A DNA stretch of 59,043 bases from Nanobdellota archaeon (GTDB lineage Archaea > Nanobdellota > Nanobdellia > Woesearchaeales > GW2011-AR4). The stretch spans positions 1-59,043 of the forward strand of contig JBBSVT010000007.1 in assembly GCA_038046685.1 (NCBI GenBank). Reading direction: 5' to 3'. Each line of letters starts with the position of its first letter. The first letter of the stretch is position 1. This document shows positions 6,657 through 57,169 of the stretch, piece by piece. The translations under genes were made by a program, and so were the position numbers. A model generated the notes under the pieces. That model was given only the letters and a program-made list of their open reading frames with translations, did no database searches and had not been told where the DNA came from.

Positions 6657-6693
6657 AAATGTGGAAAGAAATAGGTATATTATAAAATTAATG

Positions 6694-8885: not shown

Positions 8886-8886
8886 T

Positions 8887-10554: not shown

Positions 10555-10700
10555 TATTTAACCCCTTTCTTAACTTCTTTTTCCATATAATTTTGAAATT
10601 GCTTTGAAACAATCCATCCTTTTTTATCGCACTCCTCTTTAAATTTATCATAAATTTCAGAATCCACAAATAAAGTTACTCTTTTTTTAACCATCATCAT
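10554..10700 (-). CDS. 48-aa ribbon-helix-helix (CopG/Arc-like) leader protein of the RM-like operon; not in the ORF track
   Basis: The reverse strand reads ATGATGATGGTT...GTTAAATAA, giving MMMVKKRVTLFVDSEIYDKFKEECDKKGWIVSKQFQNYMEKEVKKGVK. Its TAA stop shares an A with the ATG of the 555-aa MTase (TAATG). It is about 51% identical over 43 aa (hand alignment) to the small ORF at 55238-55390. The pattern is beta strand, helix, helix. Confidence 0.6.
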   Translation of the reverse strand: MMMVKKRVTLFVDSEIYDKFKEECDKKGWIVSKQFQNYMEKEVKKGVK

Positions 10701-10706
10701 CCCCTT

Positions 10707-10722
10707 TATGTAAGCTTACATA
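10707..10722. promoter_or_regulatory. perfect 16-bp palindrome TATGTAAGCTTACATA just upstream of the RHH gene (candidate operator)
   Basis: The palindrome was read directly. It ends 6 nt from the first ATG of the RHH ORF and abuts the G-rich AAGGGG element. Confidence 0.4.
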
Positions 10723-10862
10723 AGATTATTAACACATCCCTATATAAATCTTACGCATACTTGTCCAGTGGCAAGTGCTAAAAGACGCCCTAGATGTTCT
10801 TTTTAGAAAAGAACCAAAACAAGACACTCCTTCTATCTTCTTTTTATAAAAAGAAGCAAAAA

Positions 10863-10909
10863 ACGGAATTCCCCCCTACGACGAAACGACGGACTGAAAA
10901 TTGCCCCTT
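10863..10909. repeat. right boundary repeat block of the RM-like island
   Basis: acggaattcccccc (10863-10876) and gaaaattgcccctt (10896-10909) are reverse complements of the left-block elements. The direct copy of acgaaacgacg lies at 10881-10891. The block is preceded by a hairpin at 10796-10814 and a perfect 20-nt palindrome cttctttttataaaaagaag at 10837-10856. Confidence 0.6.
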
Positions 10910-11243
10910 GATACTTATTCTTGATGGCTCACTGTGTTCGCTTGATTGAATACGCCCCTGAAATTACTTTGATTTTTTGCCTTCGGCATCGTTGCACTAA
11001 AAATCAATTCCTCCAAGTATTCGGACGAATAGAACAGGAATTTAACGGTTCCGAAACCTTGCAGGTTTCTCCACCCAAATTTTGCCCCATCTCTGAAAAT
11101 TTCTCCAGCTCTGTTCGGATTTTCCAGCTCTGAACTGCGGTTCGAGGGAAAATCCTCACGAGGTCGAAATTTTCGAGGGGTCAAAACTTCGTTAAATTCC
11201 GATGTTAAATGCAATTAAATTTAAGTTTTCCTTTTTTATGAAT

Positions 11244-11254
11244 GGAATTCTCTC
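11244..11254. repeat. left arm of a perfect 11-bp inverted repeat (ggaattctctc)
   Basis: It pairs with gagagaattcc at 11865-11875. Both arms are preceded by gaatgg. Confidence 0.5.
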
Positions 11255-11319
11255 TTATTTTTTGAATGGGCAAGAAAACAAAGAAACATTTTTATACAAC
11301 TCTACAAATTAGTTAAAAT

Positions 11320-11592
11320 ATGGTGTTAGGAATGATATTTGGATTCATAACAATTCTATTAATAATATATATCATAGTGATTGGTTGGATTCTTTATTTC
11401 AAAATTGATGAAATTTATAAAAAGAGAACAGGTAAATCAATCAATTTCATGGTTGCAGGTTTGAATGTTTGGATTGCAATTTTTACAAATGAATACAAAG
11501 ATGATAAAAAATATAATAATTTAGTTTGGCAGTTAAGAATTCTTATACCCCTCACAATAATATTGGCTTTAATATCAGGTAGTTTACAATGA
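11320..11592 (+). CDS. small integral membrane protein (3 predicted TM segments)
   Basis: The 90-aa ORF has hydrophobic stretches MIFGFITILLIIYIIVIGWILYF, VAGLNVWIAIF and ILIPLTIILALISG. It overlaps the next ORF by ATGA. Confidence 0.45.
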   Translation: MVLGMIFGFITILLIIYIIVIGWILYFKIDEIYKKRTGKSINFMVAGLNVWIAIFTNEYKDDKKYNNLVWQLRILIPLTIILALISGSLQ

Positions 11593-11801
11593 ATAAATGG
11601 GTTAAGATTAGTTTAATTGTAATATCAATATTTATAATAATCTCAACAATATGGATTTATAGTAAAGTATCAAAAACTTGTGATGAAGTTGGAGGAGAAT
11701 GTAAAGTTGAGGAAGAATGTCCAATTAATCAACTTCGTCCAACGTTCACAAATAAGCCATTTTGTACCGATAAGAAAGTTTGTTGTTACAAATTTGGTTA
11801 A
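11589..11801 (+). CDS. small secreted or membrane-anchored six-cysteine peptide
   Basis: The 70-aa ORF has an N-terminal TM/signal segment (ISLIVISIFIIISTIWIY). This is followed by C-x6-C-x5-C-x14-C-x5-CC. Confidence 0.45.
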   Translation: MNKWVKISLIVISIFIIISTIWIYSKVSKTCDEVGGECKVEEECPINQLRPTFTNKPFCTDKKVCCYKFG

Positions 11802-11864
11802 TAATAAGTTTGTTTTCTTGCCCTTGACACATTTACTAGACTGCTCACCCTATTTGTTCGAATG

Positions 11865-11875
11865 GAGAGAATTCC
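11865..11875. repeat. right arm of the perfect 11-bp inverted repeat (gagagaattcc)
   Basis: It is the reverse complement of 11244-11254. Confidence 0.5.
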
Positions 11876-12163
11876 CTAAAAGATAGTCTCGCTAACGCTC
11901 GGATTTATTTGGAAACTTAAATTTAACTTTGCGGACGCAACTTTTGAGAACTTCGTAACTCAAAAGGCATTTAACAGGAATTTTACGATCACTTCGCTGC
12001 GCTCGTTCATCCAAATTGAATTTTCACTCTGATTTCAGCTCTGTTCCGTTCGCTCGCCATCTCTGAAAAAATTTCCATCTCTGAAATTCTCAGGGTTGCC
12101 GAAAAAATAGAGTCATATGTGAGAACTTTGTATTATCCGTTTAAAGCGTTACAAATCTTCCCT

Positions 12164-12829
12164 TCACTCCAAAAACCTAGGATTAAACCTGTCGTACCAC
12201 TCCCTTTTTTCAATTTCGTTTAAGAGGTTAGAAAATCCGAACGTCGAGGCATCGCCATAAACCTCAATTTTTTTGTCAACGACATTCTTTAGGGCATAGA
12301 ACGCAACTATCCTGAAGCCAGCAGAATTTTCTTTTGTAATCTCAACGGGGTTGTAAATCACCTCAACCCTTTTCTCATTCCTGTCAAATGCAGCAGCAAC
12401 CGTGCTTGTGCCGCTTTCAGCGTCGATGTAGGATATGTAAACCTTATCATGGATTGAATCAAGGAATCTGGAAAATTTTTCAGCATCGCCGACATCAACC
12501 TGATCGAAGTTAGTTGTTCCAACGGACTTTAAGCCAGGAATTCTGGATGCTGAATTTGCAAAAAATTCTTTTACGTCCATTTCTTTAATCAATAGTTTAA
12601 CTTTGTAAGTGTCAATTAGTCTTTCAGTCTTAATTTTTAGGCCATTATATTTTTTGTTGAATCTTTCAGCCAGTTTTTCAAATTTCGGAATAAAAACATC
12701 CAGTTCGTGCCGTGCTTCCCCATAATACCTATCAATTTCCGCGCTAACTTTAATCAGTTGAATAAAATCTTTTTTGAACTTGGCAATATCGCTAGCGCTG
12801 AATTCTGATAGTATGTTATTATTTGGCAT
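12164..12829 (-). CDS. hypothetical protein
   Basis: The 221-aa ORF has normal amino-acid composition. I recognised no motif. Confidence 0.55.
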   Translation of the reverse strand: MPNNNILSEFSASDIAKFKKDFIQLIKVSAEIDRYYGEARHELDVFIPKFEKLAERFNKKYNGLKIKTERLIDTYKVKLLIKEMDVKEFFANSASRIPGLKSVGTTNFDQVDVGDAEKFSRFLDSIHDKVYISYIDAESGTSTVAAAFDRNEKRVEVIYNPVEITKENSAGFRIVAFYALKNVVDKKIEVYGDASTFGFSNLLNEIEKREWYDRFNPRFLE

Positions 12830-13067
12830 AGATAGGTTGTTTGAACGGTATTATTTAAATATTTTATCAAAAACTGAGCCACTTGGAAATCCTTAAATTT
12901 ATCGTAAACAACAGCCACTCCCATTAAAGATAGCGATCATCGATGGTTAAACATCGGAAAATTTCACGATGAAATCTGGCTTTAAGCATCTTCGCTTAGA
13001 TTATTTGAATTATCTTCAACACATTCTGAGAAAATAACTTTGCATAAATGTTTCAAAATAAATAAGT

Positions 13068-39436: not shown

Positions 39437-40351
39437 GTGGTAATTATTAAACGAAAAGTAATACAGATAGCTAATTCTACACAGCTAATTTCACTGCCTA
39501 GAAAGTGGAGCCAGAAATATGGGATTAAAAAGGGCGATGAGCTGGAGGTGGAGGAAAGAGGAGGTGATCTCCGCATTATTACTCATAAAGATATTTCATC
39601 AAGCAAAACCGAGATAGATTTTAAGGGAAAAGAATTGTTAATTCATAGAGCCTTGTCTTCCCTATATAAAGCTGGTTATGACGAAATAAAAATTATGTTT
39701 GAAAAACATTCAGAGTTAGAAATTATTCAATCTACAATTAATCAAGAGCTTATTGGCTTTGAAATTGTGGAAGAAGGCAGAGAACACATTATTGCAAGGC
39801 AAGTATCAAATATAGACCATTCAGAATTTAGTTCCATGCTAAGAAGAACATTTGTTTTCTTAATTTCTACATCTAACGAATGTCTTGATGCTTTGAAAAC
39901 AAACAATACCAATATTTTAAGAAATCTTATTTTTAGAGATATAACAATAAACAAATTAACCGATTACTGCAGAAGAGCGATCAATAAAAAAGAAGGTTAT
40001 TTCAAACATGTGGGAGCTGGCTTTACAATTATTGAAATTTTGGAAAAAATTGGAGATGGTTATAGAGACCTATGTAAATACATTTCCCAAAATAAATTAA
40101 AAATTAGCAAATCAACCATAGAAGTCTTGTCTAAAATAAATTTTTTATTAAATGATATTTATAAGCTTTTTTATGATTTTAATTTGAAAGATATGGAAAA
40201 CTATTTTATTAGGAAGAGGGAAATAGATAATTCAATATTACAATTAACTAAGAATGTAACAAAAATGGAAGTACCAATAGTTCTTCACTTAAATATTATT
40301 CTTAGAAATATTTTTGATTTAAATGGACCTTTGATGATTAATGCGCTATAA
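39437..40351 (+). CDS. AbrB-domain / PhoU-like phosphate uptake regulator homologue (archaeal type)
   Basis: The N-terminus has SpoVT/AbrB (VIQIANSTQLISLPRKWSQKYGIKKGDELEV). It is followed by a helical PhoU-like repeat region. The start is GTG. Confidence 0.65.
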   Translation: MVIIKRKVIQIANSTQLISLPRKWSQKYGIKKGDELEVEERGGDLRIITHKDISSSKTEIDFKGKELLIHRALSSLYKAGYDEIKIMFEKHSELEIIQSTINQELIGFEIVEEGREHIIARQVSNIDHSEFSSMLRRTFVFLISTSNECLDALKTNNTNILRNLIFRDITINKLTDYCRRAINKKEGYFKHVGAGFTIIEILEKIGDGYRDLCKYISQNKLKISKSTIEVLSKINFLLNDIYKLFYDFNLKDMENYFIRKREIDNSILQLTKNVTKMEVPIVLHLNIILRNIFDLNGPLMINAL

Positions 40352-41731
40352 TCACTTTGAAGAGAAATATTGATTATCTGCAAGTTGTTTGAAGATGTCA
40401 TATAATCTACCCGCTGCAACTTGGGCATAGCGACCATTTTTTGGCAACGTTTCTTTCAACTGTCCAAGAAGTATGATAATTTGGCTTAGATGTTCTCTCT
40501 GCTCGATTGCGTTTTGGACAACCGGATTTTCAATTTCAAATCTATAACCCTCACTCAACAAAATTTCACCCACTGCCCTGAATTTAGACTTGTGAGCTAA
40601 CCACGCAAAATGTCTTTCAAGCTGGGCATATGGCCATGTTGCTACAAATTTTTCCCTTCGTTCCCTACCCTTTTCTACGCTGTTTTCGGGTAAAAACCTA
40701 AAGAATTCATCTTGAGTTGATAAGTCATAATTTCCACCTGCATACATTCCTGAAACATATGTAGCTATTCTTTTTGCCTTTTCTTCTGCTCCTTGGATCA
40801 TTGCATTGACAAATTCTATTTCCAGCAGGTACCTATCCAAAATTTTCATTTGGTTATCATGACTTAAATAGGGTTTTTCATCTTTGTTAACACCAAACGA
40901 CATCAAGCTTGCTAAACTTAATTGAACTGGAGCTATTATCCTATCTTCCAAGTCAAAACTGACAATGGTTTTTTGAGCAGAATCCAAAATATGATTTTTT
41001 GGATTGCCATCGTAATAGAAACCAGTATATCCCTCTCGGTGGGCTCTAACTAAATTTGATGCGACCAAAGTTTCCCAATGTAATTTCATCTCATCTTGCA
41101 TTGAAGGTTGTAGTTGAATTCCGCTATTCCTCATCAATGTATCTAAATATTTTTCTTGAAACCTACTTAAAAAATAAGATGTTTGAGGTTTTGCTCTCCA
41201 TACAACATCTTCTAATCCCAATCTATCTTTGGAGTTTTTGCCCTCTTGCTGAATTCTTGCAATTTGAGCGGCCACTAATAAGAAATCTTCAAATGAGGCA
41301 ATACCCTTTATCATTTTAGCATACAGTTGTTCACCGGGAATTGCGCTCCAGACAGATATAGCGACACCGTTTTGTTCTTTAGTAGCTGATTCCCTCCTTG
41401 AGTCCAATATCTCTGGTGTTTGAGGCAAACCCAAATAGGGTACATCTGCACCTCCGACCTCTCTAATAATTTCCCTATACAATGGAGTTCTAGCAGCATT
41501 AATTTCGTTAAATGTTGCAAGATTTCGGAGTTCTGTCGTTCTCCTCTCTCCCTCTTTATAAAACTTAGCTACAATTGATCCTCGCTCAGTTCGAGCAACT
41601 AAATGTCTTGAAGGCCCATAAAAAACAGATTCGCCAGTGGAGGTGCCTGCTAACTCACTCATTAATTTTATAATTCTCCCCACTCTTCTAGCTTCTTTCA
41701 CTAACTCTTGTTCTTCTATTGTTGCAGTCAT
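40352..41731 (-). CDS. protein-kinase-like fold protein (APH/choline-kinase-like)
   Basis: IVAKFYKEG contains the ATP-binding Lys. FYYDGNPKNHIL (D-x4-N catalytic-loop-like) and VSFDLED (DFG-equivalent) are also present. The composition is Arg-rich, unlike the neighbours. Confidence 0.4.
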   Translation of the reverse strand: MTATIEEQELVKEARRVGRIIKLMSELAGTSTGESVFYGPSRHLVARTERGSIVAKFYKEGERRTTELRNLATFNEINAARTPLYREIIREVGGADVPYLGLPQTPEILDSRRESATKEQNGVAISVWSAIPGEQLYAKMIKGIASFEDFLLVAAQIARIQQEGKNSKDRLGLEDVVWRAKPQTSYFLSRFQEKYLDTLMRNSGIQLQPSMQDEMKLHWETLVASNLVRAHREGYTGFYYDGNPKNHILDSAQKTIVSFDLEDRIIAPVQLSLASLMSFGVNKDEKPYLSHDNQMKILDRYLLEIEFVNAMIQGAEEKAKRIATYVSGMYAGGNYDLSTQDEFFRFLPENSVEKGRERREKFVATWPYAQLERHFAWLAHKSKFRAVGEILLSEGYRFEIENPVVQNAIEQREHLSQIIILLGQLKETLPKNGRYAQVAAGRLYDIFKQLADNQYFSSK

Positions 41732-45856: not shown

Positions 45857-46098
45857 ACCATTTCTTCCATTTCAGCATCTGCTAATTCTGAGTGCGGCCC
45901 GAAAAAATAAGCATCAAAGCCGGCTTCTTCTTCCAATTCCTTATTGTTTTTTGACAACAAAAATAATTATTTTTGATACCACAACTTTCCGTTTATTGGG
46001 GTGCAAGAGTTAGCACTAAGCAAAAGCAGCAGATTTTTCTTAACTTCGCTTAAATTATCCAATAATTGCTTTTTTATGTCCATGTTTATAAAAGCCAT
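45706..46098 (-). pseudogene. Panacea (DUF4065/SocA)-like or wHTH gene interrupted by an in-frame TAA
   Basis: The ATG at 46098 opens MAFINMDIKKQLLDNLSEVKKNLLLLLSANSCTPINGKLWYQK. A TAA at 45967-45969 follows. The same frame then continues LFLLSKNNKELEEEAGFDAYFFGPHSELADAEMEEMVQLGVVKKVGSIFVLTEIG (track ORF 45706-45960). The KL..K.L.L and F.AY..GP.S blocks resemble Panacea-domain antitoxins. Confidence 0.35.
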
Positions 46099-46192
46099 AA
46101 TCGGCAGTCTGTTTTTAGGGTTTAAATAATTCACCCGCAAATGTCCAGTGGTATGCCATTATTTTCTATATGGAATTTAAATATTGTGATGT

Positions 46193-46852
46193 TTAATAGG
46201 GTATTTTCCTCCATTTGCAAAAATCACACTCTTTTGTGCAATTTGGCATATCTTCTTCTAAGATTTTTAAGGCATTTTTTATTATTTTTTCAGCATTGCT
46301 TATTGAAATGCCCATTTTAATTAAGTCTGTATGGAAAATAATTTCGCCTTCTGCATTTACCTTATCAGGATGGTAAAACAATAAGTAAGAGTAATTTTCA
46401 GTTTCATAGTCATTTTTTCTTAATAAAAAGTTGTAAATATCTAATTGGTCTTGATAATGGTTCGCAGTATCCTCTTTTAATGGATAGCCTCTCGTTTTGT
46501 AATCCAACACTATCAGTTTATCGCCCTTTTGCAATATATTATCAATTGCTCCCCTGAAAAGATTGCCATTTTCATCATTCCATGTTATTCCTTTAAGATT
46601 GTTTCTCCAAACTTTTAATAACTCAATATTATCAAATAGTTTTACATGTCCATTTAATTTTTCAAGCTCAGGCGGTAATAATCCCTTGTCTCTAAATGAA
46701 TCAAAATGAACTTTTAATATTCTATCCATTCCAGAAGGCAAAGAAGGAAAAATTGAATCTGGCCTTTTGATGCTCTTATTGAAATGAAGCCAGAAGCATC
46801 TAGGGCACTCCTTCAAAAGACTCAAACTTGATGGGCTGAATTTGTATGGCAT
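46193..46852 (-). CDS. Cas4/RecB-like PD-(D/E)xK nuclease with predicted Fe-S cysteines
   Basis: The 219-aa ORF has N-terminal SLSLLKECPRCFWL, GAIDNIL...LIVLDYKT (D...D-x-K), a RecB-type QLDIY motif and a C-terminal CTKECDFC cluster. Confidence 0.65.
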   Translation of the reverse strand: MPYKFSPSSLSLLKECPRCFWLHFNKSIKRPDSIFPSLPSGMDRILKVHFDSFRDKGLLPPELEKLNGHVKLFDNIELLKVWRNNLKGITWNDENGNLFRGAIDNILQKGDKLIVLDYKTRGYPLKEDTANHYQDQLDIYNFLLRKNDYETENYSYLLFYHPDKVNAEGEIIFHTDLIKMGISISNAEKIIKNALKILEEDMPNCTKECDFCKWRKIPY

Positions 46853-46857
46853 TTTGT

Positions 46858-48459
46858 TTAGCTTAAATTGTATTTTTCGCTTGCTAAAGTATTAATCATC
46901 TTTATACATTCAACTAAGATATTCTCAAAAACTTCTTTGAAGTTATTATTCAACCCAAACTTCTTTTTCGTATCTTCATAATTGTCTCCTTTTCTATGGG
47001 CTGAGCCAGTTGAACGGAGATTCTGCAAATTCTTCAAAAAATCAATCATGTCCGGAAAATAGAAATTATATCTTTGTACAAGATGCTTTTTGAAAACTTC
47101 AATACTTTGATCATTCTTCTTAAGCAGGAATTCTTCTTTTACTGATGTTTTAAGTTCTTCTTTCGATTCTTCTGAGATTAAGCCACTCTTTAGTTCTTTT
47201 ATATTTATTGAATCAATTATTATCTTTGTTAATGCTTGTACTAACTCGTCGAACTCTTTTTGAGATTCTTTAGTTGGTATCCTCAAAGTTTGATAATAGT
47301 GTTCATCTTCTTTATTCAACGGTAAAAATAGATGCCATCCATATTTTTTATACCATTTTTCTTGAAAGACTTTAAATTTTTGCTTGAAGTATAGGTCTGC
47401 GGTATCAGGATCACAAAACTCCGCCATAAAACTACGTTGGAAGCAACTATGACTCATTTTTCCATCAGTAATGGTATTATACTGTTTCCAATGCTTCTGT
47501 TCCTTATTTGAAAGATGACCCAAATCGCCTAGAAAGACCATTACATAATCTTTATGGCTATTGTCCATGCGTAACCCCCATAATACATGACAACTCAAAT
47601 AACCATCAGATACAGAATATTTTTCTGGCTGGTTGTAATATTTATCTAATACTTTTTTTTCAAAAAATGTAGGGGTTAGGTAATGCGGATTGCCTTTATT
47701 GGCACCAAAGTAATTTGCTAAATGCTTTTCATCACATGTAAAACTTTTTTTATTACTATCTTCATCCAACCCAACAAAAAATTCTTCGAATTCTTTTTCT
47801 TCGGAAAAGAGTTTTGATTTAAAAGAATCAGTAACTGAAATTATCTTCTTACCCATCACAATAGAGATGGATTTTTTTCCTTTAAACAATTGGGAATCAT
47901 TATTTAAAAATTGATGATAAATAAATTTATCACTTTCCTTTTTAAGATCGATTTTCTTTAGCCCTAAGTCTTCTATAGTATTATCTGAATACCTAATAAA
48001 ATCAAAAAATTGAGCTAAAACTAACTTTTTTGCAAAGAGATATTCTTTAAGGAACAATTTTTTGATTTTTACTTCTTTTTCAGATATAACAATTACCTCT
48101 TCTTCATCACCATTGTTATCTATATGTATAAATCTATTATGTTCTTTGTCTTCATATAAATTGAAGAAAATCTTAATATTTTCACATAATTCCCAATATT
48201 CTTTTTTAATACCATGAAATTGCCTTCTAATCAAAATTGGAATCACGTTTTCTGAACCATAAACATCATCTATGTGGAAATCCCAACTGTATTCTTTTAA
48301 TGACTCCTTCACATATTCTTTTTTTAATAAACAAGAATAGATAACTAAGTTATCATTTTTATCTTCTATAGATTTGTATAAGAAAGTCCAAGCGTCAGTA
48401 TCTTCACTTTCAAAAAAATCTGTCCAATCTTTAAATTGCATAAGTTCTGCTTCGTTCAT
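46858..48459 (-). CDS. 533-aa protein of unknown family with a C-terminal HEPN-like Rx5H motif
   Basis: It shares an ATGA start/stop overlap with the MTase gene and lies 5 nt before the Cas4-like gene. NLRSTGSAHRKG is at residues 480-491 (codons R482 = 47014-47016, H488 = 46996-46998), inside a helical C-terminal region. Confidence 0.6.
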   Translation of the reverse strand: MNEAELMQFKDWTDFFESEDTDAWTFLYKSIEDKNDNLVIYSCLLKKEYVKESLKEYSWDFHIDDVYGSENVIPILIRRQFHGIKKEYWELCENIKIFFNLYEDKEHNRFIHIDNNGDEEEVIVISEKEVKIKKLFLKEYLFAKKLVLAQFFDFIRYSDNTIEDLGLKKIDLKKESDKFIYHQFLNNDSQLFKGKKSISIVMGKKIISVTDSFKSKLFSEEKEFEEFFVGLDEDSNKKSFTCDEKHLANYFGANKGNPHYLTPTFFEKKVLDKYYNQPEKYSVSDGYLSCHVLWGLRMDNSHKDYVMVFLGDLGHLSNKEQKHWKQYNTITDGKMSHSCFQRSFMAEFCDPDTADLYFKQKFKVFQEKWYKKYGWHLFLPLNKEDEHYYQTLRIPTKESQKEFDELVQALTKIIIDSINIKELKSGLISEESKEELKTSVKEEFLLKKNDQSIEVFKKHLVQRYNFYFPDMIDFLKNLQNLRSTGSAHRKGDNYEDTKKKFGLNNNFKEVFENILVECIKMINTLASEKYNLS

Positions 48460-51400
48460 TTGTCATCTCCAAACTCCTCAACAATCTTAATTTCTTCAGG
48501 AGTTAATTCATAGAGCCTGTAAACAAGCTGATCAATTTCTTTTTCAAGCTTTTTGACTTTGGATTGTTTGGTTGAATTGTCTAAATAATCTGTATCTTTA
48601 GTGAATAAGAGAATCTGATTGACGAGATGGATTATGGGTTGTTGAATTTCTTTTTTCTTTAACTTTTCATGGATTGGTAATGTTTTAAGAAATGTCCCCG
48701 CATAAAACCTATAGCCGTTTTGCCTAATCGGACAAACAATTTGATAGTAAAACTCAGCAAGTTTACTATTCAATAATCCGAGAAGGATTAAATTATTTAT
48801 ATAATCATCAATTGAATAAATTGAATATATACTCCCTCCAGTGAAGAATAACCCTTCCTTATCCAAACAAAACTCATTTTTTTTACATAAAGCTTGTGTT
48901 AGTATTTTCTCTCTTATTACCTTTTCAAAAGAGGAATGTCTCATTAAACCATACCAATAACTTCCTTCTTCAGATAAATCAGTACGAGAATCTTTTCTTT
49001 TTTCCAATAGAGATTTATTCTTTCTTAAATATTCATAAACTTTAGGGGATTGTTTTTTTAATTCATTTTCTTTAACAAGTATAGTTTTATTATTCACTTT
49101 TGTATAGGGGTATATTACAAAAAAGTTAGTTTTAGATAAATGGTACTTATCCGTCTCCGATGGTCTTAATAGTGCGAAAACAAATGGTTGATTCTCCAGA
49201 TCCTTATATTTTCCTTTTTTAAAAACAAGAATCTTGTCAGAGCCAGTTACCAAACCATACTCAATGTTAGCGATATCGTTCAAAATATTTTTTGAAGTAT
49301 TCTTTAATTTATTGACGACTCTAATGTTATCCATGTTTTCTAGCTCCCAAGAATTGTCTGTAAGACTATCCTTCATTATTTTATAATTGTTTTTTAAAAT
49401 ATAAATTGATAAATTTTCATTTAGATTAAAATTTTCAGCATTAGAAAATAAGAAGTAATCCATATCATTATCTTTGACGAAAGAAAAAACAGATGTGTAA
49501 TTGGTTGCAGATTCAAAAATCTGATTGTCTCCAAAATAGACCATAGAATTAAGAGGATTTTTCATTATTTCCCTTATTCTCCTGCCATATTCTGTTTTTG
49601 TGAATTGTGAAGATGTTATGAATGTAGCAAAACCTTTATGATTAACCAATTTAAAACTTAATTCAATAAATAATATTGAGACATCTATTCTTTTGTAAGC
49701 ACTGTAATAAATTTTTTTGTATATGTCTATCTCCTCATGAGATAAATTCTGAACTCTGACATAAGGTGGATTAGCAATCACCACATCAAATCCCGGATTC
49801 TCTCTCTGAAAAACTTCCGCAAAGTACAGCTTCCATAAAAAGAATGGCTTGGATTTGTTTTTCTTGTACTGCTGCAATTTCTTCATCGCTTCTTCGTTGC
49901 CTTGTTCTTTTAGTGTTTCCTCAACTAATTCCCATTCAATCCTTTCAATGTTATCTCTGTACTGTTTCTTGAGTTTCCTGTTTTGCTCGTTAAAGAATTT
50001 CTGTTGTAATTCCCTTAATTCTTTAAGCTTCTTCTGTGATTCCTTAATTCTTTTTTGCAATGAATCACCAATAGTTGCTTGCTGCACTTGTTCTTTTGGC
50101 GTAGAAAGTATCTGCTCTTTCTTTTTTTGTAACTTCTTTATTTCGTTTACAATATCTTTGCTCCTGCCATTATGATTCTTAATCTTGCCTGTGTGTATCT
50201 GATGTAGTTCCTGATTAAGCTTTGAAATCTCTGCATTAATCTGCTTTACCTCAAAAGAATAATCCTTTTTTACTTCTCCAAGTAGCTTGTCATCAAACAG
50301 CTTTACTCCTTCAAACTCCTCAAGCAAGCTGTTGCCGCACATTATCTTATGGTCTAAGTTTGGCAATGGCTTTATGTTTTTCATGTCCAACTCATCAACG
50401 ATCAAAGAAAGCCAGAATCTCAACTTTGCTATGTCCACAGCAGAAGAGTCTATGTCAACACCATACAAGCAATTCTCAATCACTTCCCTTTTCAAGCTGT
50501 AGTTTGTCCTTTCTTTTTGCTCTTCATCATTAAAGAATATGCTTAATATGGACCTTGCCTTAACTATTTCGTTCATCATTCCTACAGGGAATGCTCCTGA
50601 ACCGACAGCTGGGTCAACTATCTTGATATTCTTTAATAAGTCATCAATCTTCCTATAATTTTCCCTGATTGATTTAGGCAATTTATGCTCTTTATCAGAA
50701 ACATAAGATCGCCCATATCTTTTCACATTTTCCTTTTCTTTGACTAAAATATCGATGGCAAAATCTCCAAGCTGTATGAATTTTTCAATATCTTTCCTAT
50801 CAATCCCAGAATTTGTTTCCAGATAGTTAATTAGCGACTGCTGGCACATATAATGCACTATTTCTCTTGGAGTGTAATAGGCGCCTTGCCCTTTCCTGAT
50901 ATTTTCTTCAATAAGATTTTCAAATACTTTACCAAGCATTTCAGGATCGATGGCAACTTCTTTTTCCAAAGGCTCGTCTTCCTTGACTGTGAAGTTATAT
51001 TTATCAAAAGTATTCAAAATGTTCTCGAAAATTGGGTTATCTAATAGTAAATCAGTTTCACGCCAATTGTATTCATTTATTGGCTCAAACAAGCCTCCAT
51101 TTAAGAAAGGTATTTTGCATTCAAACCTGCTGTAATAATCATCATCTCTTTCTGTTGCCAAAGCCTCATAAAACAATGGCTCTAAAACATCATTAAAGAA
51201 ATTTTTATAATTTTTCTTCTCAAAGAGCTTTCTTAAGAAATTCTTAGGCCCAGAGCCCCAACCCATAAACTTTCCAGACTTGTCTTTCTGGACTCCAAGC
51301 CAGCCTTTTTTCTGCAGGAAATAAATAAATACTATCTGTCCAAGCAATTTCTTGGCAAAATCAACAGTAGATATTGCATTTTCCTCAAATTCCTTTCTGA

Positions 51401-52049
51401 TAAAAGAATCTTTATTAATATGCCTCTCCAAAGCATCCTTAAGTTTCAAATAAAGCTCTTTGTACTCAGTAAAGAACTCTTTAGTAACCTTATCAATGCT
51501 GAAAGCCTCTTCAATCTCCCCTACAGATGGATTTATTTCATCTTCCATCACCAATTCCAAGAATTGTCTTTTGCATGTATGATTTGGCTCATTTATGCCC
51601 ACTAGAAATGAGTACCTTTTAGCTGGCGTTAATTCTTTTGCAACTTTTGCCTTTCCTTCTTCATCTTTCAGAAGGTTATATTCCATCTTTACAAATGAGA
51701 AACGCCAGTCTTCATCATCACCATAAAAAGCAACAAGTGCAGCATCCTTGTCAGCATTGCCTAAATATTTGGCAATGAAATTTCTTTGCATTGTCCTTGC
51801 CCTGTCGCGGGAACTTGTTCTTTTTAATTTGACAATTAAAACATCAATAACCTTTTTTGATTTGTCCGTATAGCTCCCTATAGAATTATAAGATTCAATA
51901 TAATCCTGGTACTCATTCCAGACTGTCCAGCTTTTTTGGTTTATATTGAAATTGTTAAACAATTCCTTGATAAATTTCGCAAATCTGTGAGTATCAAAAT
52001 CATTGCTAAAAGTTTCATCTAGCAGTTTTATGGCGTTTTGTTTATCCAT
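48456..52049 (-). CDS. large Eco57I/PglX-like gamma-class N6-adenine DNA methyltransferase with a TaqI_C-type target-recognition region
   Basis: The 1197-aa ORF carries GAYYTPREIVHYM, IVDPAVGSGAFPV and YGVDID. A roughly 150-aa K/E/Q-rich coiled-coil insertion is followed by FDVVIANPPYV, then LLGLLNSKLAEFYY. Confidence 0.85.
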   Translation of the reverse strand: MDKQNAIKLLDETFSNDFDTHRFAKFIKELFNNFNINQKSWTVWNEYQDYIESYNSIGSYTDKSKKVIDVLIVKLKRTSSRDRARTMQRNFIAKYLGNADKDAALVAFYGDDEDWRFSFVKMEYNLLKDEEGKAKVAKELTPAKRYSFLVGINEPNHTCKRQFLELVMEDEINPSVGEIEEAFSIDKVTKEFFTEYKELYLKLKDALERHINKDSFIRKEFEENAISTVDFAKKLLGQIVFIYFLQKKGWLGVQKDKSGKFMGWGSGPKNFLRKLFEKKNYKNFFNDVLEPLFYEALATERDDDYYSRFECKIPFLNGGLFEPINEYNWRETDLLLDNPIFENILNTFDKYNFTVKEDEPLEKEVAIDPEMLGKVFENLIEENIRKGQGAYYTPREIVHYMCQQSLINYLETNSGIDRKDIEKFIQLGDFAIDILVKEKENVKRYGRSYVSDKEHKLPKSIRENYRKIDDLLKNIKIVDPAVGSGAFPVGMMNEIVKARSILSIFFNDEEQKERTNYSLKREVIENCLYGVDIDSSAVDIAKLRFWLSLIVDELDMKNIKPLPNLDHKIMCGNSLLEEFEGVKLFDDKLLGEVKKDYSFEVKQINAEISKLNQELHQIHTGKIKNHNGRSKDIVNEIKKLQKKKEQILSTPKEQVQQATIGDSLQKRIKESQKKLKELRELQQKFFNEQNRKLKKQYRDNIERIEWELVEETLKEQGNEEAMKKLQQYKKNKSKPFFLWKLYFAEVFQRENPGFDVVIANPPYVRVQNLSHEEIDIYKKIYYSAYKRIDVSILFIELSFKLVNHKGFATFITSSQFTKTEYGRRIREIMKNPLNSMVYFGDNQIFESATNYTSVFSFVKDNDMDYFLFSNAENFNLNENLSIYILKNNYKIMKDSLTDNSWELENMDNIRVVNKLKNTSKNILNDIANIEYGLVTGSDKILVFKKGKYKDLENQPFVFALLRPSETDKYHLSKTNFFVIYPYTKVNNKTILVKENELKKQSPKVYEYLRKNKSLLEKRKDSRTDLSEEGSYWYGLMRHSSFEKVIREKILTQALCKKNEFCLDKEGLFFTGGSIYSIYSIDDYINNLILLGLLNSKLAEFYYQIVCPIRQNGYRFYAGTFLKTLPIHEKLKKKEIQQPIIHLVNQILLFTKDTDYLDNSTKQSKVKKLEKEIDQLVYRLYELTPEEIKIVEEFGDDK

Positions 52050-55000
52050 TCTTAATCAGATACTCAGATAGAATTACTTCTTTAGGGCCTGAAATATCAG
52101 CTGAGCCCTTGGCAAATGTTCCCTGAAACACACTGGGCGATATTCCAGATTTGACCTTTGCAAGTATTTTGAGAGGATTTATCTCGTTGCCAATTTCTTT
52201 AACTATTCTTTTTATTGTTGCTTTGGCAATTCCACCTTCTTTTAATATCCTTAAGACTTCCTGCAAATATTCCTCATCTTCATCAGTGAACTCTTTGGCT
52301 TTGATTATTGATTTAATTATCTTAATCAGTTTTCCTTCTTGGCTTCTTCCGCCAGCTGATTTAGGCTCATCTACCTCTTGGATGAATACTGCATCAAATT
52401 CTTTTTTATTTAATTCAAGATGCTTGTAGAATTCGGCATCCAATTTCTCCCGCTTTAATTCTTTTTCAGATTCCAGAAGTTTTGCCGCTTTAATAAAATC
52501 AATTTCATCAACAATGCTTCCATTAGTCATTAATATTTTTCTAAGCTTCCCTTTCCTGAAAAATGTTAAAACTGAATTTCCACTACCAGAATATTTTTTT
52601 GCGGTTCTTGCTTTTTTAGGCAGTTTCTTTATCTTCTCAACCAAATCCGGATTCTTGTCTCTTATTTCCCTTAAGAAAGTAAGATATCTTAGTTCAGTAT
52701 CATCTTCTTCATCTTCTCCAGTAATAATCTTTTTGGATGTTAATTTAGTAAACAAGTCATGGGACTTTACTTCTTCATCGGTAAGAAGCCTTGCATCATT
52801 ACCGAGCATCTCAATAAATGCTTTAATCTTTGATTCGGCTGCTTCTGTTAAGCTAATCTCTTGGTTTATAGGTCCTGCTGGGAAAAAATTATATGTGTAA
52901 ATTGTGCTATATGGTGGATTTTTGCTTACTCTATTCACACGACCAACTCTTTGCATCATTCGGACAGGATTCCAAGGAATGTCATAATTTATTACAACAT
53001 TTGAACGATGCAAGCTCACTCCTTCAGATAATATATCTGTTGAAATTAATATTCTAACGTCATCTTTCTGTTTGTGCTTAGGGTAATTTGCATCATAATT
53101 CTCAATGGTTCTCAATCTGTCTGATTCAGAAGAATTGCTTGAGAAAGCCATGACTTTATTGTCAAATTTAGGATTTAATTTTGCATAAAGATAGTCTGCT
53201 GTTTCTTTTGATTCTGTAAAGACTAATAGCTTATGCTCCTTGAGTATCTTTTCTTTGGATAATCTTTTAATAAACTCATCCAGCTTTGGATCTTCGTTTA
53301 CATTCTTCCACATTCCTTCAATTTTCTCAAGAAGCTTAAAATCATGCTCTAAATCCCTTATGAGATGCGGCAGGAAATCTTTGGAGGAATATTCAGAGGC
53401 TTTCTCGCTTTCAATTAATTCTTGTATTGCTTCCCTATCATCATCTTCAAGGAACTCAAAAATCTTATTGATATGTTTTTTGCTGACATACACTCTTCCT
53501 TTTTTGTATTCTTCAATAAATCGTTTATATGAATGAATAAACCTATTAACAGACATCTTAAACGCAAAGAAACTGCTCTCAAGCCTTTTAAGAAGCAATA
53601 TTTTCATGAACTTCCCCATGTTTTTCTGGGAAATTTCTTCGGGCTGGGAAATCTCTTTTTTAGCAGGGTCTAGGTATAATAAGGGCGTATATCTTGCATA
53701 TTTGAATTCCTTAATAATAAGCTCAAGAGTCTTATTGAAAATCTTATCCAACTCTTCGTTAAAATGATAGACTATTGGCTCAGGATCAGCCACATCAGGA
53801 AATTTTAAGCCTTGAGTTTGCAAGTCTTTTCCGTAATATTTAGAAATGTTGTTTCTTGTCCTTCTAACCATTAGATGATGCAAAACATTTTCTCTTATGT
53901 CTTCAGCATTTTCCTTTATTATCCTTAAATATTCATCTTTATCTTTTTGCCTATTAAGACCTTTAAGATTATTTTGAAGTTTCTTAAAGTATTTTTCCAA
54001 GTCCCTAACTTTTGGGCTTGGAAGTGTTGACTTATGGGCGTATTGGAATAGCTTTATTTGGCTTAAAATATCTAAAGGAGTATTATTAAGTGGAGTTGCT
54101 GAAACAAGAATTACTCTTTTTCCTCTGCAAATCTCAAACAGCTTTTCATACATTTGAGTTGATTCTGTTCTGAATCTATGTGCTTCATCAATGATTATAT
54201 TCTTATATTTTTCAGTTCCTCTTTGAATTACTTTATCAAGCATCCCAATTGACTCATACTCTGCTTGTCTGACTCCAAACTCATAAAATACATTTCTCCA
54301 AGAGCCAGGATTATCCTTATCAAGTAACGTGGGGGGAGCAATAACTAATGTTCCGCCATCTAATTGCAGGGCAAGCATTGCAGAAACAAATGTCTTCCCT
54401 AAACCAACAACATCAGAAATAAACACGCCGCCATATTCACTTAATTTCATCTTTGCATCTATAACAGCATCTTTCTGATATTTTAAGTCCATAAAATTTT
54501 CGGGAAGATAGTCTTTGAAAATATCCTCTTGGTCAATATTGATTTTTTCTTTCAAAAATTCATACAAAAACTTTAAGTATAATTCGTATGGTGTTATTTC
54601 ATCATTCAGCCAAGTTTTATTCTTGATTGTTTCAACATATTTTTCAGAAACATCAACAGCATTTTCCCAAAGCTCATTGAATTTCTTTAGCGAAAATTCA
54701 TAATCAGAACGGTTTTTCAATTCAACATTAAACTCAATATTATCTCTTAATCCTGATTTTGTAAAATTGCTTGAGCCAGTTATTACTCTTCCAACATCCC
54801 TGTCGCCTTCTTTAAAAGTCATTATGTATAATTTTGCGTGAATTGTATCAGCAGGATATACTTTTATCTCCAGTTTGCCAGACCTAAGCCATTCAATAAA
54901 TTTGTGAATCCCTTCTTCGATATCATAAGAATCTTTTGAGGACTCCATTTCTTGCACAATTTGGCTAGTAAACTGTTCTTTAGTTTCCTTAGTAGAAGAG

Positions 55001-55248
55001 GGCAATGTCTGCTGAACTTCTTTCTTAGACTCAACTAATAATCCAAAAGTTTCTTTGTCTGTACTAATCCCAATCAAAACCCTGATTTTTTCTGTTTTTT
55101 CTAATGATTTATAGATGCTGTAAAAACCGCTTGTATAGAAATATCCAACTAAACAATCAAAATAACGAGTATCTTTTATAAGAGTAACAAACCTATTTAA
55201 TAAACTCTTACCTTCTTCATTAGTTATGAAGGTTAAATCACTTGACAT
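52042..55248 (-). CDS. PLD-family nuclease domain fused to an SNF2/SF2 helicase
   Basis: The 1068-aa ORF has N-terminal FDCLVGYFYTSGF and TIHAKLYIM...VITGSSNFT (a single HKD-like motif, H137/K139). Helicase motifs are VVGLGKT, IIIDEAHRF, LVSATPLNN, ILISTDILSEGVSLH and MQRVGRVNR. Confidence 0.85.
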   Translation of the reverse strand: MSSDLTFITNEEGKSLLNRFVTLIKDTRYFDCLVGYFYTSGFYSIYKSLEKTEKIRVLIGISTDKETFGLLVESKKEVQQTLPSSTKETKEQFTSQIVQEMESSKDSYDIEEGIHKFIEWLRSGKLEIKVYPADTIHAKLYIMTFKEGDRDVGRVITGSSNFTKSGLRDNIEFNVELKNRSDYEFSLKKFNELWENAVDVSEKYVETIKNKTWLNDEITPYELYLKFLYEFLKEKINIDQEDIFKDYLPENFMDLKYQKDAVIDAKMKLSEYGGVFISDVVGLGKTFVSAMLALQLDGGTLVIAPPTLLDKDNPGSWRNVFYEFGVRQAEYESIGMLDKVIQRGTEKYKNIIIDEAHRFRTESTQMYEKLFEICRGKRVILVSATPLNNTPLDILSQIKLFQYAHKSTLPSPKVRDLEKYFKKLQNNLKGLNRQKDKDEYLRIIKENAEDIRENVLHHLMVRRTRNNISKYYGKDLQTQGLKFPDVADPEPIVYHFNEELDKIFNKTLELIIKEFKYARYTPLLYLDPAKKEISQPEEISQKNMGKFMKILLLKRLESSFFAFKMSVNRFIHSYKRFIEEYKKGRVYVSKKHINKIFEFLEDDDREAIQELIESEKASEYSSKDFLPHLIRDLEHDFKLLEKIEGMWKNVNEDPKLDEFIKRLSKEKILKEHKLLVFTESKETADYLYAKLNPKFDNKVMAFSSNSSESDRLRTIENYDANYPKHKQKDDVRILISTDILSEGVSLHRSNVVINYDIPWNPVRMMQRVGRVNRVSKNPPYSTIYTYNFFPAGPINQEISLTEAAESKIKAFIEMLGNDARLLTDEEVKSHDLFTKLTSKKIITGEDEEDDTELRYLTFLREIRDKNPDLVEKIKKLPKKARTAKKYSGSGNSVLTFFRKGKLRKILMTNGSIVDEIDFIKAAKLLESEKELKREKLDAEFYKHLELNKKEFDAVFIQEVDEPKSAGGRSQEGKLIKIIKSIIKAKEFTDEDEEYLQEVLRILKEGGIAKATIKRIVKEIGNEINPLKILAKVKSGISPSVFQGTFAKGSADISGPKEVILSEYLIKNG

Positions 55249-55454: not shown

Positions 55455-55841
55455 TCAAATAATAATCTCCCCTACCTTCCCCAAATCCCTCTGCTTCAAA
55501 ACCATCACTTTCATATTTGCAGCTGCCAATATCATTAGTTTTCTTTCAAACTTTTCATTATATTCAGGATCATCCATACCTTTGTATTCAACGATCAAGC
55601 CGTTCAATCCCGGCAAGATAAAGTCGGGTCTAATCCATTCTCCGTCTATTTCAATCAAAGAATCATAAACGTAGTCAATTCCGCATTCATAAATTCTGTC
55701 AGCAATTATTCTCTCGCCTTCTGATTGCACTCCATGCCCTGCTTTTGCCATGAACTTCAGATTCTTTTCTATTTCTTTGTTGAATTCTTCTCTCATACTC
55801 ACAGAATTGGTCACGTGTTTGAAGGTTTGGAGTAAGCTCAT
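55455..55841 (-). CDS. Vsr/DUF559-like PD-(D/E)xK endonuclease-fold protein
   Basis: SEGERIIADRIYECGIDYVYDSLIEIDGEWIRPDFILPGLNGLIVEYKG fits the E...D-F...(I/V)E-x-(K/D)G layout of DUF559/Vsr-like domains. Confidence 0.45.
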   Translation of the reverse strand: MSLLQTFKHVTNSVSMREEFNKEIEKNLKFMAKAGHGVQSEGERIIADRIYECGIDYVYDSLIEIDGEWIRPDFILPGLNGLIVEYKGMDDPEYNEKFERKLMILAAANMKVMVLKQRDLGKVGEIII

Positions 55842-55861: not shown

Positions 55862-56404
55862 TCATTCCGTTGCTTCTTTCGGAATCTTGAATTCTCTTTT
55901 GCTGAAGATAAGCTCTTCAGTTTGGGCTATGCATGTTTTGCAGCGTTCCATCATAACATCATACTTCTCAACTATCTCGCTGTCTTTAACTTTTGACCCA
56001 TATCGAGCTTCTTCGCGCTCATCAACATCTGTCTTTTTTTCTATTTCGCTGTGAACAGTGATTCTGTCTATGAAATCATCGTCTAGCATTATCAGGTTAG
56101 CATCTTTAACATAGCGAAGAAATAAAGCTGTGCATTTTTGGCTTCTGCTTTCAATGCCGAATTCCGATAAAATGGCAAGAGCGCAGTAATAAATTGTGTA
56201 AAACCATTCTTCCGGAAGCTTGTAATCAGCCCCTTCTTTTTTGTATTTTTCACACCATTCTAGATTCTCTTTTGCTTTTTTAATGTATTCTAATGCCTGC
56301 TCATGATTCGGCTCTGCAACTAATAAGCCCTTATGCTTTTTGCCCTTCTCCTCATCCTTTTTTGCATTTATGAAGCAATTCCTTACCTTTTCAAACACGC
56401 TCAT
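55862..56404 (-). CDS. HEPN-domain protein, copy 3
   Basis: The 180-aa helical protein has ALEYIKKAKENLEWCEKY...YYCALAILSEFGIESRSQ...REEARYGSK (R..A.YG block). It overlaps the upstream MNT gene by 4 nt. Confidence 0.6.
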   Translation of the reverse strand: MSVFEKVRNCFINAKKDEEKGKKHKGLLVAEPNHEQALEYIKKAKENLEWCEKYKKEGADYKLPEEWFYTIYYCALAILSEFGIESRSQKCTALFLRYVKDANLIMLDDDFIDRITVHSEIEKKTDVDEREEARYGSKVKDSEIVEKYDVMMERCKTCIAQTEELIFSKREFKIPKEATE

Positions 56405-57030
56405 TTTGACACTCCATGCAGCTTTTTCATGAATTTTATGAATTCTTCCTGCCCGAAAAGGACAACGCCTTTCTTAACTGCCTCAACAAAAGCCTTGTTT
56501 GGCTTTAAAAGTTCTTCTCTAAACTCTGATTCAGTAAAATTTATTGAATGAATGCGCTTGGATTCGCTTTTTTGGATTTTATCAAGCGATTCGTGAAGCT
56601 TTTTAAAGCTTTTTCGGTCTGGAATGATGCCAATAACATCAATGTCTTTAGCTTTTGCATATGAGCTTAATACGCTTCCATAGAGAATGAAAAAGCTTAC
56701 ATGCTCCTTGACTTCTATAAAATTAAAAGTCCATCGTTGATAGTCCATAGCTTCCCTGCTTAAAGCCAAATCCAAGTATTTATCCAACAAATCATTCTTA
56801 AAATTAAGTTTCGGGACAATTAAGCTTGTCTCCTTTCCAGTTGGCTTCATAATAACATACTTTTCCTGCTCTAAGCGCTTCAAAACCTTCCATATCCCGC
56901 TTCTTGTCATGCCCAATTCTTTCCCAATTGAGGTTATAGTGTGCATAGTAGAGAAATCCTTAAGCAGTAGCAATACGATTCGCATTTGATGAGACATAAT
57001 TGTTTCCATTTTGGATATAATTGTTTCCAT
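56401..57030 (-). CDS. wHTH plus nucleotidyltransferase (MNT-type antitoxin), copy 3
   Basis: The wHTH is ITSIGKELGMTRSGIWKVLKRLEQEKYV. The NTase motif is FILYGSVLSSYAKAKDIDVIGII. The start was trimmed to the ATG at 57030 because a TATA-like tataaatatcc lies inside the longer track ORF. A second identical ATG context is at 57009. Confidence 0.65.
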   Translation of the reverse strand: METIISKMETIMSHQMRIVLLLLKDFSTMHTITSIGKELGMTRSGIWKVLKRLEQEKYVIMKPTGKETSLIVPKLNFKNDLLDKYLDLALSREAMDYQRWTFNFIEVKEHVSFFILYGSVLSSYAKAKDIDVIGIIPDRKSFKKLHESLDKIQKSESKRIHSINFTESEFREELLKPNKAFVEAVKKGVVLFGQEEFIKFMKKLHGVSK

Positions 57031-57122
57031 ATAGGAAATAAGGATATTTATATACTTTTCGGTTTTAAATTTACCAAAAAGGCACGATTTACCAAATGGT
57101 AAATCAATGCCAAATACCATCA

Positions 57123-57169
57123 ACTATCTTAAAAAAAGATAGTAGTATCTAAAAAAGAGATACCTACTA
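57123..57169 (-). terminator. two adjacent hairpins with A/T-run loops
   Basis: The arms are actatctt/aagatagt (57123-57143) and tagtagtatct/agatacctacta (57140-57169, one bulge). On the minus strand each is followed by T runs. They lie downstream of the lipoprotein gene cluster and upstream of the MNT3 promoter. Confidence 0.35.

Follow-up and report, generated by a model that had tools for sequence, protein, structure and literature searches.

The stretch of DNA considered here (the window) comprises 59,043 nucleotides from a Nanobdellota archaeon (GenBank assembly GCA_038046685.1, contig JBBSVT010000007.1), and its element of interest is a gene of 533 codons, named X533, on the minus strand at positions 46858-48459. 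The open reading frame (ORF) is unbroken from its ATG start to the stop codon at 46858-46860, and it occupies the third position in an operon of four genes on the same strand. The first of these (52042-55248) encodes a 1068-residue fusion of a PLD (HKD) nuclease with an SNF2-type helicase, as recognized in Pfam, PADLOC, and NCBIfam scans; the second (48456-52049) encodes an Eco57I-type N6-adenine methylase of the gamma type, 1197 residues in length and with a TaqI_C specificity domain, which is matched by the 'type IIG' model of PADLOC. The ATG of X533 (48459-48457) overlaps the TGA of the methylase ORF (48458-48456), the minus strand reading ATGA at this point. At its other end, the X533 stop finishes at 46858 and the next ORF begins at 46852, after a gap of 5 nt; this last gene (46193-46852) encodes a 219-residue Cas4-like PD-(D/E)xK (PDDEXK_1) nuclease that has Cys clusters at both ends, CxxC at the N-terminus and Cx3Cx2C at the C-terminus. 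An initial annotation of this DNA had placed a long ORF between the methylase and nuclease genes with these same junctions, giving no strand, and that placement was borne out. The reading favored here, to which we would assign about an even chance of being correct, is that X533 is an autonomous, latent module of the abortive-infection (Abi) type with a HEPN-like effector.

The protein had initially been taken for an orphan. A word-index search returned 392 homologues, nearly all of 520-560 residues and alignable end to end, and an exhaustive search with a profile hidden Markov model (HMM) of 1.84 billion cluster representatives yielded at least 2,603 clusters (at 50% identity) with E<=1e-3, of which 1,112 reached E<=1e-30. 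In a collection of species-representative genomes (185,579 genomes), 386 relatives were found, all labeled 'hypothetical protein', and on these numbers the orphan status was refuted. The archaeal carriers include DPANN, methanogens, and Bathyarchaeial archaea, while those among the bacteria include the candidate phyla radiation (CPR), Streptomyces, cyanobacteria, Nitrospirota, Acidobacteriota, Shewanella, and Firmicutes; nine plasmids also harbor relatives, and the closest homologues of X533 are archaeal. The family, typically of about 540 residues, is without annotation. Scans of X533, three fragments of it, and 54 homologues with the Pfam, NCBIfam, PADLOC, and PHROGs models gave nothing (PADLOC 2.0 returned 0 families for X533 at E<=0.01), and sequence and profile searches of the PDB with X533 gave chance matches only (HAD-like proteins, NxrB, CmeR/TetR), in keeping with the earlier failure to recognize a family for the first part of the protein. 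Among viruses, a tblastn search of 50,697 phage genomes with X533 found no match, and a Foldseek search of the X533 model against the BFVD viral structures found nothing below E=0.1.

Conservation within the family was assessed with two sets, 257 aligned full-length members and 143 diverse representatives taken from the library clustered at 50% identity. Attention had been drawn to residues 480-491, NLRSTGSAHRKG, which contain R482 and H488 and thus an Rx5H motif, RSTGSAHRK (R482...H488...K490; 46990-47016, minus strand), proposed to supply the catalytic Arg and His of a predicted metal-independent RNase site. That these residues are conserved among homologues was confirmed: R482 and H488 are jointly kept in 252 of the 257 members, the individual counts being 253 for R482, 239 for S483, 256 for H488, and 249 for K490, and among the diverse representatives H488 is kept in all 143 and R482 in 139. 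The bare R-x4-6-H pattern is common, occurring at least once in 61% of shuffled versions of X533 (mean 0.9), and hence it is conservation that gives the motif its weight. X533 itself has two matches to the pattern, R482-H488 and R297-H302. The latter, R297-MDNS-H302 (47554-47571, minus strand), is an Rx4H inside the central part of the protein beside D299-N300; R297 is kept in 144 and H302 in 179 of the 257 members, and the prediction puts this pattern in a strand or loop, not in a helix. Elsewhere in the helical half of the protein, D385, K412, D416, and N419 are as invariant as the motif and the central block described below.

Residues 346-533 (46861-47424, minus strand) constitute an all-helical C-terminal domain that is read as HEPN-like from the DSSP assignment of AlphaFold2 models and from weak structural matches enriched in HEPN proteins. 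With the family alignment as input, AlphaFold2 modeled the full-length protein with a predicted local distance difference test (pLDDT) score of 91.6 and a predicted template modeling score of 0.77, and residues 335-533 alone with a pLDDT of 89.7. The proposed helices are 354-373 (helix 1), 400-416 (helix 2, with E402, D404, K412, and D416), 469-487 (helix 3), and 492-501 together with 507-526 (a kinked helix 4), and a variable, indel-rich segment (417-468) separates helices 2 and 3. Helix 3 finishes shortly past R482, and H488 is the first residue of the loop that follows. In HEPN domains, the Rx4-6H motif sits where a helix closes and the next loop opens, helices 2 and 3 are often separated by a poorly conserved insert, and helix 4 is often kinked (Anantharaman et al., 2013, PMC3710099); the modeled position of the motif, the insert at 417-468, and the split last helix agree with this description. 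In a Foldseek search of residues 335-533 against the PDB, 17 of the 47 chains listed belong to the HEPN superfamily, with TM-scores normalized to the target of 0.28-0.47 and probabilities of at most 0.28. They include HepT (7bxo, 6m6w, 5yep), HEPN toxins (7ae8, 8xeh), 1wwp, 2hsb, 1ylm, and MtlR/YggD (3brj, 6kcr, 3c8g). When the full-length protein served as query, HepT was matched with a probability of 0.38-0.51.

A number of results weigh against this assignment. The best match of residues 335-533 in the PDB had E=1.5 and none reached E<=0.001, and over the two Foldseek searches together the HEPN matches had E values of 0.27 or more and probabilities of 0.51 or less, none of them significant. 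Pfam scans of X533 fragments, even at E<=10, gave 0 matches and no HEPN model. A profile-profile comparison by hhalign, which covered two HEPN families, gave a probability of about 0.1% for the C-terminal profile against both a HepT/DUF86 alignment and Escherichia coli MtlR; the HepT part of this result is a weak negative because the alignment, whose seed came from locus L026, is shallow (number of effective sequences ~2.2). The residue following the HEPN Arg is polar and mostly N, D, or H (PMC3710099), and the corresponding position of the family is S483 in 239 of 257 members and His in 8; Ser is polar, yet it is not one of the typical residues. Likewise, E402, D404, and D416 are conserved in the helix 400-416, but the Ex3[KR] spacing is absent from this proposed helix 2. 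Thus, of the initial claim that the sequence matches the HEPN signature, the conservation of the motif and its correct placement in the model were upheld, whereas significant matches to a HEPN fold or profile were not obtained; a profile comparison of the kind suggested as a check, over the two families covered, went against the claim, and the comparison of folds was divided between the share of HEPN proteins among the weak matches and the poor E values of all of them. Judged from the model, the C-terminal domain is nonetheless probably a very divergent HEPN domain that acts like one.

The remainder of the protein, residues 1 to ~335, is beta-rich in the AlphaFold2 model and falls into two parts. 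Residues 1-245 (47725-48459, minus strand), delimited from the modeled secondary structure and from column counts, are the least conserved. Within them, residues 93-158 have the order alpha-beta-beta-beta-alpha-beta with E93, D118, and E129-x-K131, resembling the core of restriction endonucleases (REases). The D118/E129/K131 triad is intact in 90 of the 257 members and in 14 of the 143 diverse representatives, and this region is probably non-catalytic at the level of the family. Residues 203-205, 'GKK', were considered as a possible Walker A motif and rejected, the spacing being wrong and the residues lying in a beta-strand. The second part, a central block of residues 246-345 (47425-47724, minus strand), was recognized from its near-invariant residues: F266, Y274, D285, W294, D299-N300, L310-G-D312-L-G314, E320, W324, N328, S336, and R342. 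A conserved-looking block had also been noted initially, and its residues 260-328 proved to be the most conserved part of the family. Among the 143 representatives, D299 is kept in 141, D312 in 138, W324 in 142, and S336 in 142. In conservation, the block equals the Arg/His motif. It has four acidic residues and no conserved Lys, and may represent a second center, for catalysis or ligand binding.

Its conservation also counts against the reading favored above, since the actual catalytic center of the family could lie here. In this alternative, which we consider unlikely, the central block (D285, D299-N300, D312, E320, and W294/W324) would be that of a metal-dependent nuclease or phosphodiesterase acting on DNA or nucleotides, possibly with a Cap4/REase-like fold, and the C-terminal helices would merely bind nucleic acid or regulate, with R482, H488, and K490 as binding residues. 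The block matches or exceeds the Arg/His motif in conservation, and fusions of REase-fold DNases with HEPN domains are common (PMC3710099). Furthermore, the sole significant PDB match of the full-length model in Foldseek was Avs3 (8dgc_A; E=4.6e-4, probability 1.00, 200 columns, 14% identity), and because Avs3 was absent from the search with residues 335-533, the likeness lies in residues 1-334. Avs3 bears an N-terminal Cap4-type PD-(D/E)xK nuclease of approximately 200-225 residues (PMC13581612), a length that the 200 aligned columns fit; the match was placed on the X533 side only, and it is to be taken as a lead. A SAVED protein encoded beside a Pseudomonas aeruginosa homologue was considered as a Cap4 seed and rejected as it is an HNH-SAVED protein. 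Against a nuclease in the central block, there is no conserved lysine of a (D/E)xK motif within it, the N-terminal D118/E129xK131 is intact in those 14 diverse members only, and the Pfam and PADLOC nuclease models give no match. It would also leave the strict conservation of the Arg and His at the exact HEPN position unexplained.

A survey of phyletic spread and gene neighborhood, advised in the initial annotation, showed many lineages of both domains and mostly unrelated neighbors among which restriction-modification (R-M) genes recur. At 88 loci, the immediate neighbors of the homologues are mostly unrelated and often lie on the opposite strand or beyond gaps of more than 100 nt, from which it follows that a protein of the X533 family must be able to act alone. 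Outside the window, most members stand alone, in the setting of R-M genes, integrases, or gamma-mobile-trio (GMT) islands. Homologues lie between the Mod and Res genes of type III systems (L008, L010), directly after a methylase-ResIII-HARE-HTH-Mrr operon (L003), beside GmrSD, a type I R-M system, and Hachiman (L001, where the GmrSD gene starts 45 nt after the homologue), and between two Schlafen/AlbA_2 genes with a gene for an Mrr-domain protein two genes upstream (L006). A methylase C-terminus precedes the homologue in L074, and the closest homologue of all (73% identity) is adjoined by a Dam-type methylase only. A census of Pfam families in the 228 proteins encoded within two genes of a homologue counted phage integrase eight times, HsdR and ResIII seven times each, HsdM four times, and Mrr, HsdS, and SLFN_AlbA_2 three times each. 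Two proteins, P0182 (857 residues) and P0267 (883 residues), comprise a whole X533-type protein with a C-terminal PNP_UDP_1 and GmrSD_N (DUF262) domain, respectively; these fusions could be read-throughs of gene calling.

Plasmids provide further settings. On plasmid pPma4326F of Pseudomonas syringae pv. maculicola ES4326 (L099), the gamma-mobile-trio genes gmtY, gmtZ, and gmtX are followed immediately, in the cargo position of a GMT island, by a gene for a full-length homologue (5944-7524; WP_007250370.1, 33.5% identity). The gene after it, at a distance of 27 nt, encodes a hypothetical protein of 327 residues. GMT islands were reported to be rich in defense cargo (bioRxiv 10.1101/2023.03.28.534373). 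GAPS2 (WP_174208646.1) is a GMT-island defense protein without known domains, and its first 126 residues scored -0.2 bits against the family HMM, with no significant similarity; a short local resemblance, also non-significant, exists between 'FVVPAIT...SLNNEHWHFKVGYGF' at residues ~40-70 of GAPS2 and 'FYSALI...SLxDPSWDLxIGxGxPGF' at residues ~40-70 of the family. The P. aeruginosa plasmid homologue adjoins the gene for the HNH-SAVED protein mentioned above, and the family also occurs on large plasmids beside toxin-antitoxin genes.

An obvious R-M or defense gene occurs within two genes of the homologue in only about one-fifth of the sampled loci, and many of the neighbors are housekeeping genes, both of which count against a role in defense. 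The family could instead serve in the maintenance of mobile elements as an addiction factor, or be an RNA-processing or housekeeping enzyme that travels in variable regions. Such a function would suit the many loci with housekeeping neighbors and no known defense gene within two genes, the frequency of integrases and insertion sequences among the neighbors, and the occurrence on large plasmids beside toxin-antitoxin genes. It accords poorly, however, with the patchy distribution of the family over both domains (386 relatives in 185,579 genomes), its repeated embedding in R-M operons, the GmrSD_N and PNP_UDP_1 fusions, its position as cargo of a GMT island, and its sharing of an operon slot, described below, with RelA_SpoT, GHKL, and M78/DUF4411 genes; we regard a function outside defense as very improbable.

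Two genes, those of the PLD-SNF2 helicase and the Eco57I-type methylase, make up a conserved core that recurs in L092, L094, L095, L096, and L101, where the helicases are 65-92% identical to that of the window. What follows the methylase differs from one core to the next. In the window, this slot holds X533 and the Cas4-like nuclease gene is present. A homologue of X533 that is 66% identical follows the methylase in L092/L093 (helicase 65%), and the Cas4-like gene is absent. In L095, which has the most similar helicase (92%) and whose methylase bears the source name 'Candidatus Woesearchaeota', the slot (10383-12977) contains genes for a 199-residue protein and a 664-residue GHKL ATPase, and a Cas4-like protein that is 75% identical is present. 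This high helicase identity and the archaeal closest homologues of X533 point to a DPANN archaeon as the likely source of the window. In L101/L102 (helicase 69%), the slot is taken by a gene for a 954-residue protein with a RelA_SpoT domain (L101, 10414-13278), with a Cas4-like protein of 59% identity; in L094 (helicase 76%) by genes for an HTH-M78 peptidase and a DUF4411 protein (10617-12250), the Cas4-like gene being absent; and in L096 (helicase 67%) by genes for DUF365 and DUF1802 proteins, again with the Cas4-like gene absent. The Cas4-like orthologues in L095 and L101 hence end the same operon behind different cargo genes. A gene combining Schlafen/AlbA_2 and HATPase_c_4 domains lies between the helicase and methylase genes in L101 (5628-7001) and L102 (3181-4554), such that the operon frame may have a second insertion point there. 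No common (adaptor) domain was found among the slot proteins, neither with X533 nor mutually.

Because related cores hold other genes in the same slot, X533 is swappable cargo of a conserved frame and not a subunit of the core: L094, L095, L096, and L101 represent the core without X533, and most X533 homologues occur without the core. The other occupants of the slot are likewise effector-type proteins, and most of them are uncharacterized. These observations bear on the alternative that X533 works only as part of the helicase/methylase/Cas4-like system, as a dedicated subunit that would, for example, regulate it, detect non-self DNA, or act as an adaptor. Such a role is suggested by the ATGA coupling to the methylase gene and the 5 nt separating X533 from the nuclease gene, by the recurrence of the order helicase-methylase-X533 in L092/L093, and by the methylase C-terminus preceding the homologue in L074. 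Unrelated genes nevertheless fill the slot of close cores, with products that share no domain with X533; the 73%-identical homologue has only a Dam-type methylase beside it, and most of the 88 loci have unrelated or opposite-strand neighbors or large gaps. A dedicated subunit is thus distinctly improbable.

Other features of the window surround this operon. X533 and the 3' part of the methylase gene (46001-50000) have a G+C content of 0.29-0.31, compared to 0.33-0.36 over the flanking purine-biosynthesis genes, namely purD, a purF-like gene, and that of a 5-FTHF cyclo-ligase; a second stretch of low G+C content (0.29-0.31) lies at 6001-12000. No tRNA genes were found within the window. A scan of the operon for sigma-70 promoters and terminators gave no excess over shuffled sequences, and the host is probably archaeal. 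Upstream of the helicase gene, positions 55862-57123 (minus strand) hold two ORFs. One encodes a 240-residue protein with helix-turn-helix (HTH) and Pol-beta nucleotidyltransferase domains (PADLOC PDC-M05A, E=3.4e-9), and its end overlaps by 4 nt the start of the other, which is of 180 residues and without a family. Together they resemble a toxin-antitoxin or defense pair of the MNT type, and the 180-residue partner could be HEPN-like. Between this pair and the helicase gene, a 128-residue ORF (55455-55841, minus strand) is matched by two PADLOC models, HEAT_CxxC_PD-DEXK (E=9e-14) and PDC-S68 (E=3e-12), over nothing but their C-terminal portion; it may represent a stand-alone or remnant PD-(D/E)xK domain. 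At 39437-40351 (plus strand), the sole domain recognized in a 304-residue ORF is an N-terminal MazE/AbrB-like antitoxin (E=6.7e-7), and this ORF abuts a convergent one of 459 residues without a family on the opposite strand (40352-41731).

The association of HEPN genes with R-M systems, for which PrrC is the paradigm, is already known: at least 16 HEPN clades were linked to R-M operons, and a PrrC-type logic was proposed for them (Anantharaman et al., 2013, PMC3710099). X533 resembles PrrC and RloC in its location beside a methylase gene inside an R-M(-like) operon, in having a helical domain at its C-terminus that contains a conserved Arg...His, and in the proposed role, in which an RNase kept latent would back up DNA restriction (PMC3710099). 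It differs from them in its Rx5H spacing and the Ser following the Arg, and in having neither an N-terminal ABC-ATPase with a P-loop/Walker A nor any Pfam or NCBIfam match. PrrC and RloC also accompany type I R-M systems, whereas X533 is hosted by a PLD-SNF2/Eco57I-type operon, its relatives elsewhere by type III or I systems, and the family is mostly stand-alone. That X533 adds an RNA-targeting arm to a DNA-targeting system, as was initially suggested, is accordingly plausible by analogy with PrrC; however, being swappable and mostly stand-alone elsewhere, it is no integral, obligatory part of the four-gene system.

Among other known proteins, HepT/DUF86 and the HEPN-T toxins (7bxo, 5yep, 7ae8, 1wwp, 2hsb, 1ylm) are the best natural structural neighbors of residues 335-533, sharing with the model a helical bundle of similar size and a motif at the end of helix 3. 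The matches are non-significant (E 1.9-9, probability <=0.28; hhalign ~0.1%), and X533 differs in lacking the tyrosine of RX4HXY, in needing no MNT partner, and in carrying the domain behind ~345 unrelated residues. RnlA/LsoA, AbiJ, ApeA, AbiD/F, AbiU2, and the DUF4145-type proteins are similar in that a single polypeptide combines a family-specific N-terminus with a C-terminal HEPN domain, and an association with R-M operons is frequent among them (Table 1 of PMC3710099), but their Pfam models miss X533, and none of them has, as far as tested, an equivalent of its N-terminal and central regions. Unlike Avs3 (8dgc), a STAND NTPase, X533 has neither the NTPase nor the TPR sensor, the PADLOC Avs models miss it, and its nuclease-like triad is not conserved across the family. 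With respect to the slot, the Abi and rlo genes in type I R-M operons and the cargo of GMT islands follow the same principle of a conserved frame in which one position receives unrelated genes of effector type; the frame of X533 differs from these in being of the PLD-SNF2/Eco57I type, found mainly in DPANN and other archaea, with a coupling between frame and cargo that is putative. What is new is a family outside Pfam, NCBIfam, PADLOC 2.0, and PHROGs, with ~345 residues of new architecture and a second invariant center.

Returning to X533 as an autonomous Abi-type module, its family would comprise large numbers of horizontally spread, single-polypeptide immune modules of about 540 residues, as yet without a name. 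The variable residues 1-245, with their mostly degenerate REase-like fold, would probably provide the sensor or binding part, and the invariant residues 246-345 a central block. R482 and H488, where helix 3 ends, would together make up an RNA-cleaving site that needs no metal, probably after dimerization; HEPN RNases are metal-independent endoribonucleases that leave 2',3'-cyclic phosphate ends. The module is envisaged to remain silent until infection or failure of the neighboring restriction system; once triggered, it would cut cellular or viral RNA and cause growth arrest, that is, abortive infection. Within the R-M-like operon, X533 could either be co-regulated with restriction or, as with PrrC, be restrained by it. 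A broader proposal, which we put forward only tentatively and think more likely wrong than right, is that X533 founds a widespread immune family, with an unseen sensor architecture, a divergent HEPN RNase, and a second acidic center, and that its operon is a DPANN-type chassis whose slot exchanges restriction-coupled Abi effectors (HEPN-like, RelA/SpoT, GHKL, M78-DUF4411), a generalization of PrrC-EcoprrI.

The comparison of operons provides a clean example of the exchange of effector genes inside an R-M-like frame, and the post-methylase slot could be mined for more effectors. For the protein itself, the family offers three targets for mutation, namely R482/H488, the central acidic cluster, and the facultative REase-like triad. 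Should the HEPN assignment be wrong, there would still be a large and confidently folded family with structural relatives limited to part of Avs3. If it is true, thousands of archaeal and bacterial 'hypothetical proteins', including those of DPANN and CPR organisms with their tiny genomes, would acquire a function open to experiment, that of antiviral RNases encoded by a single gene.

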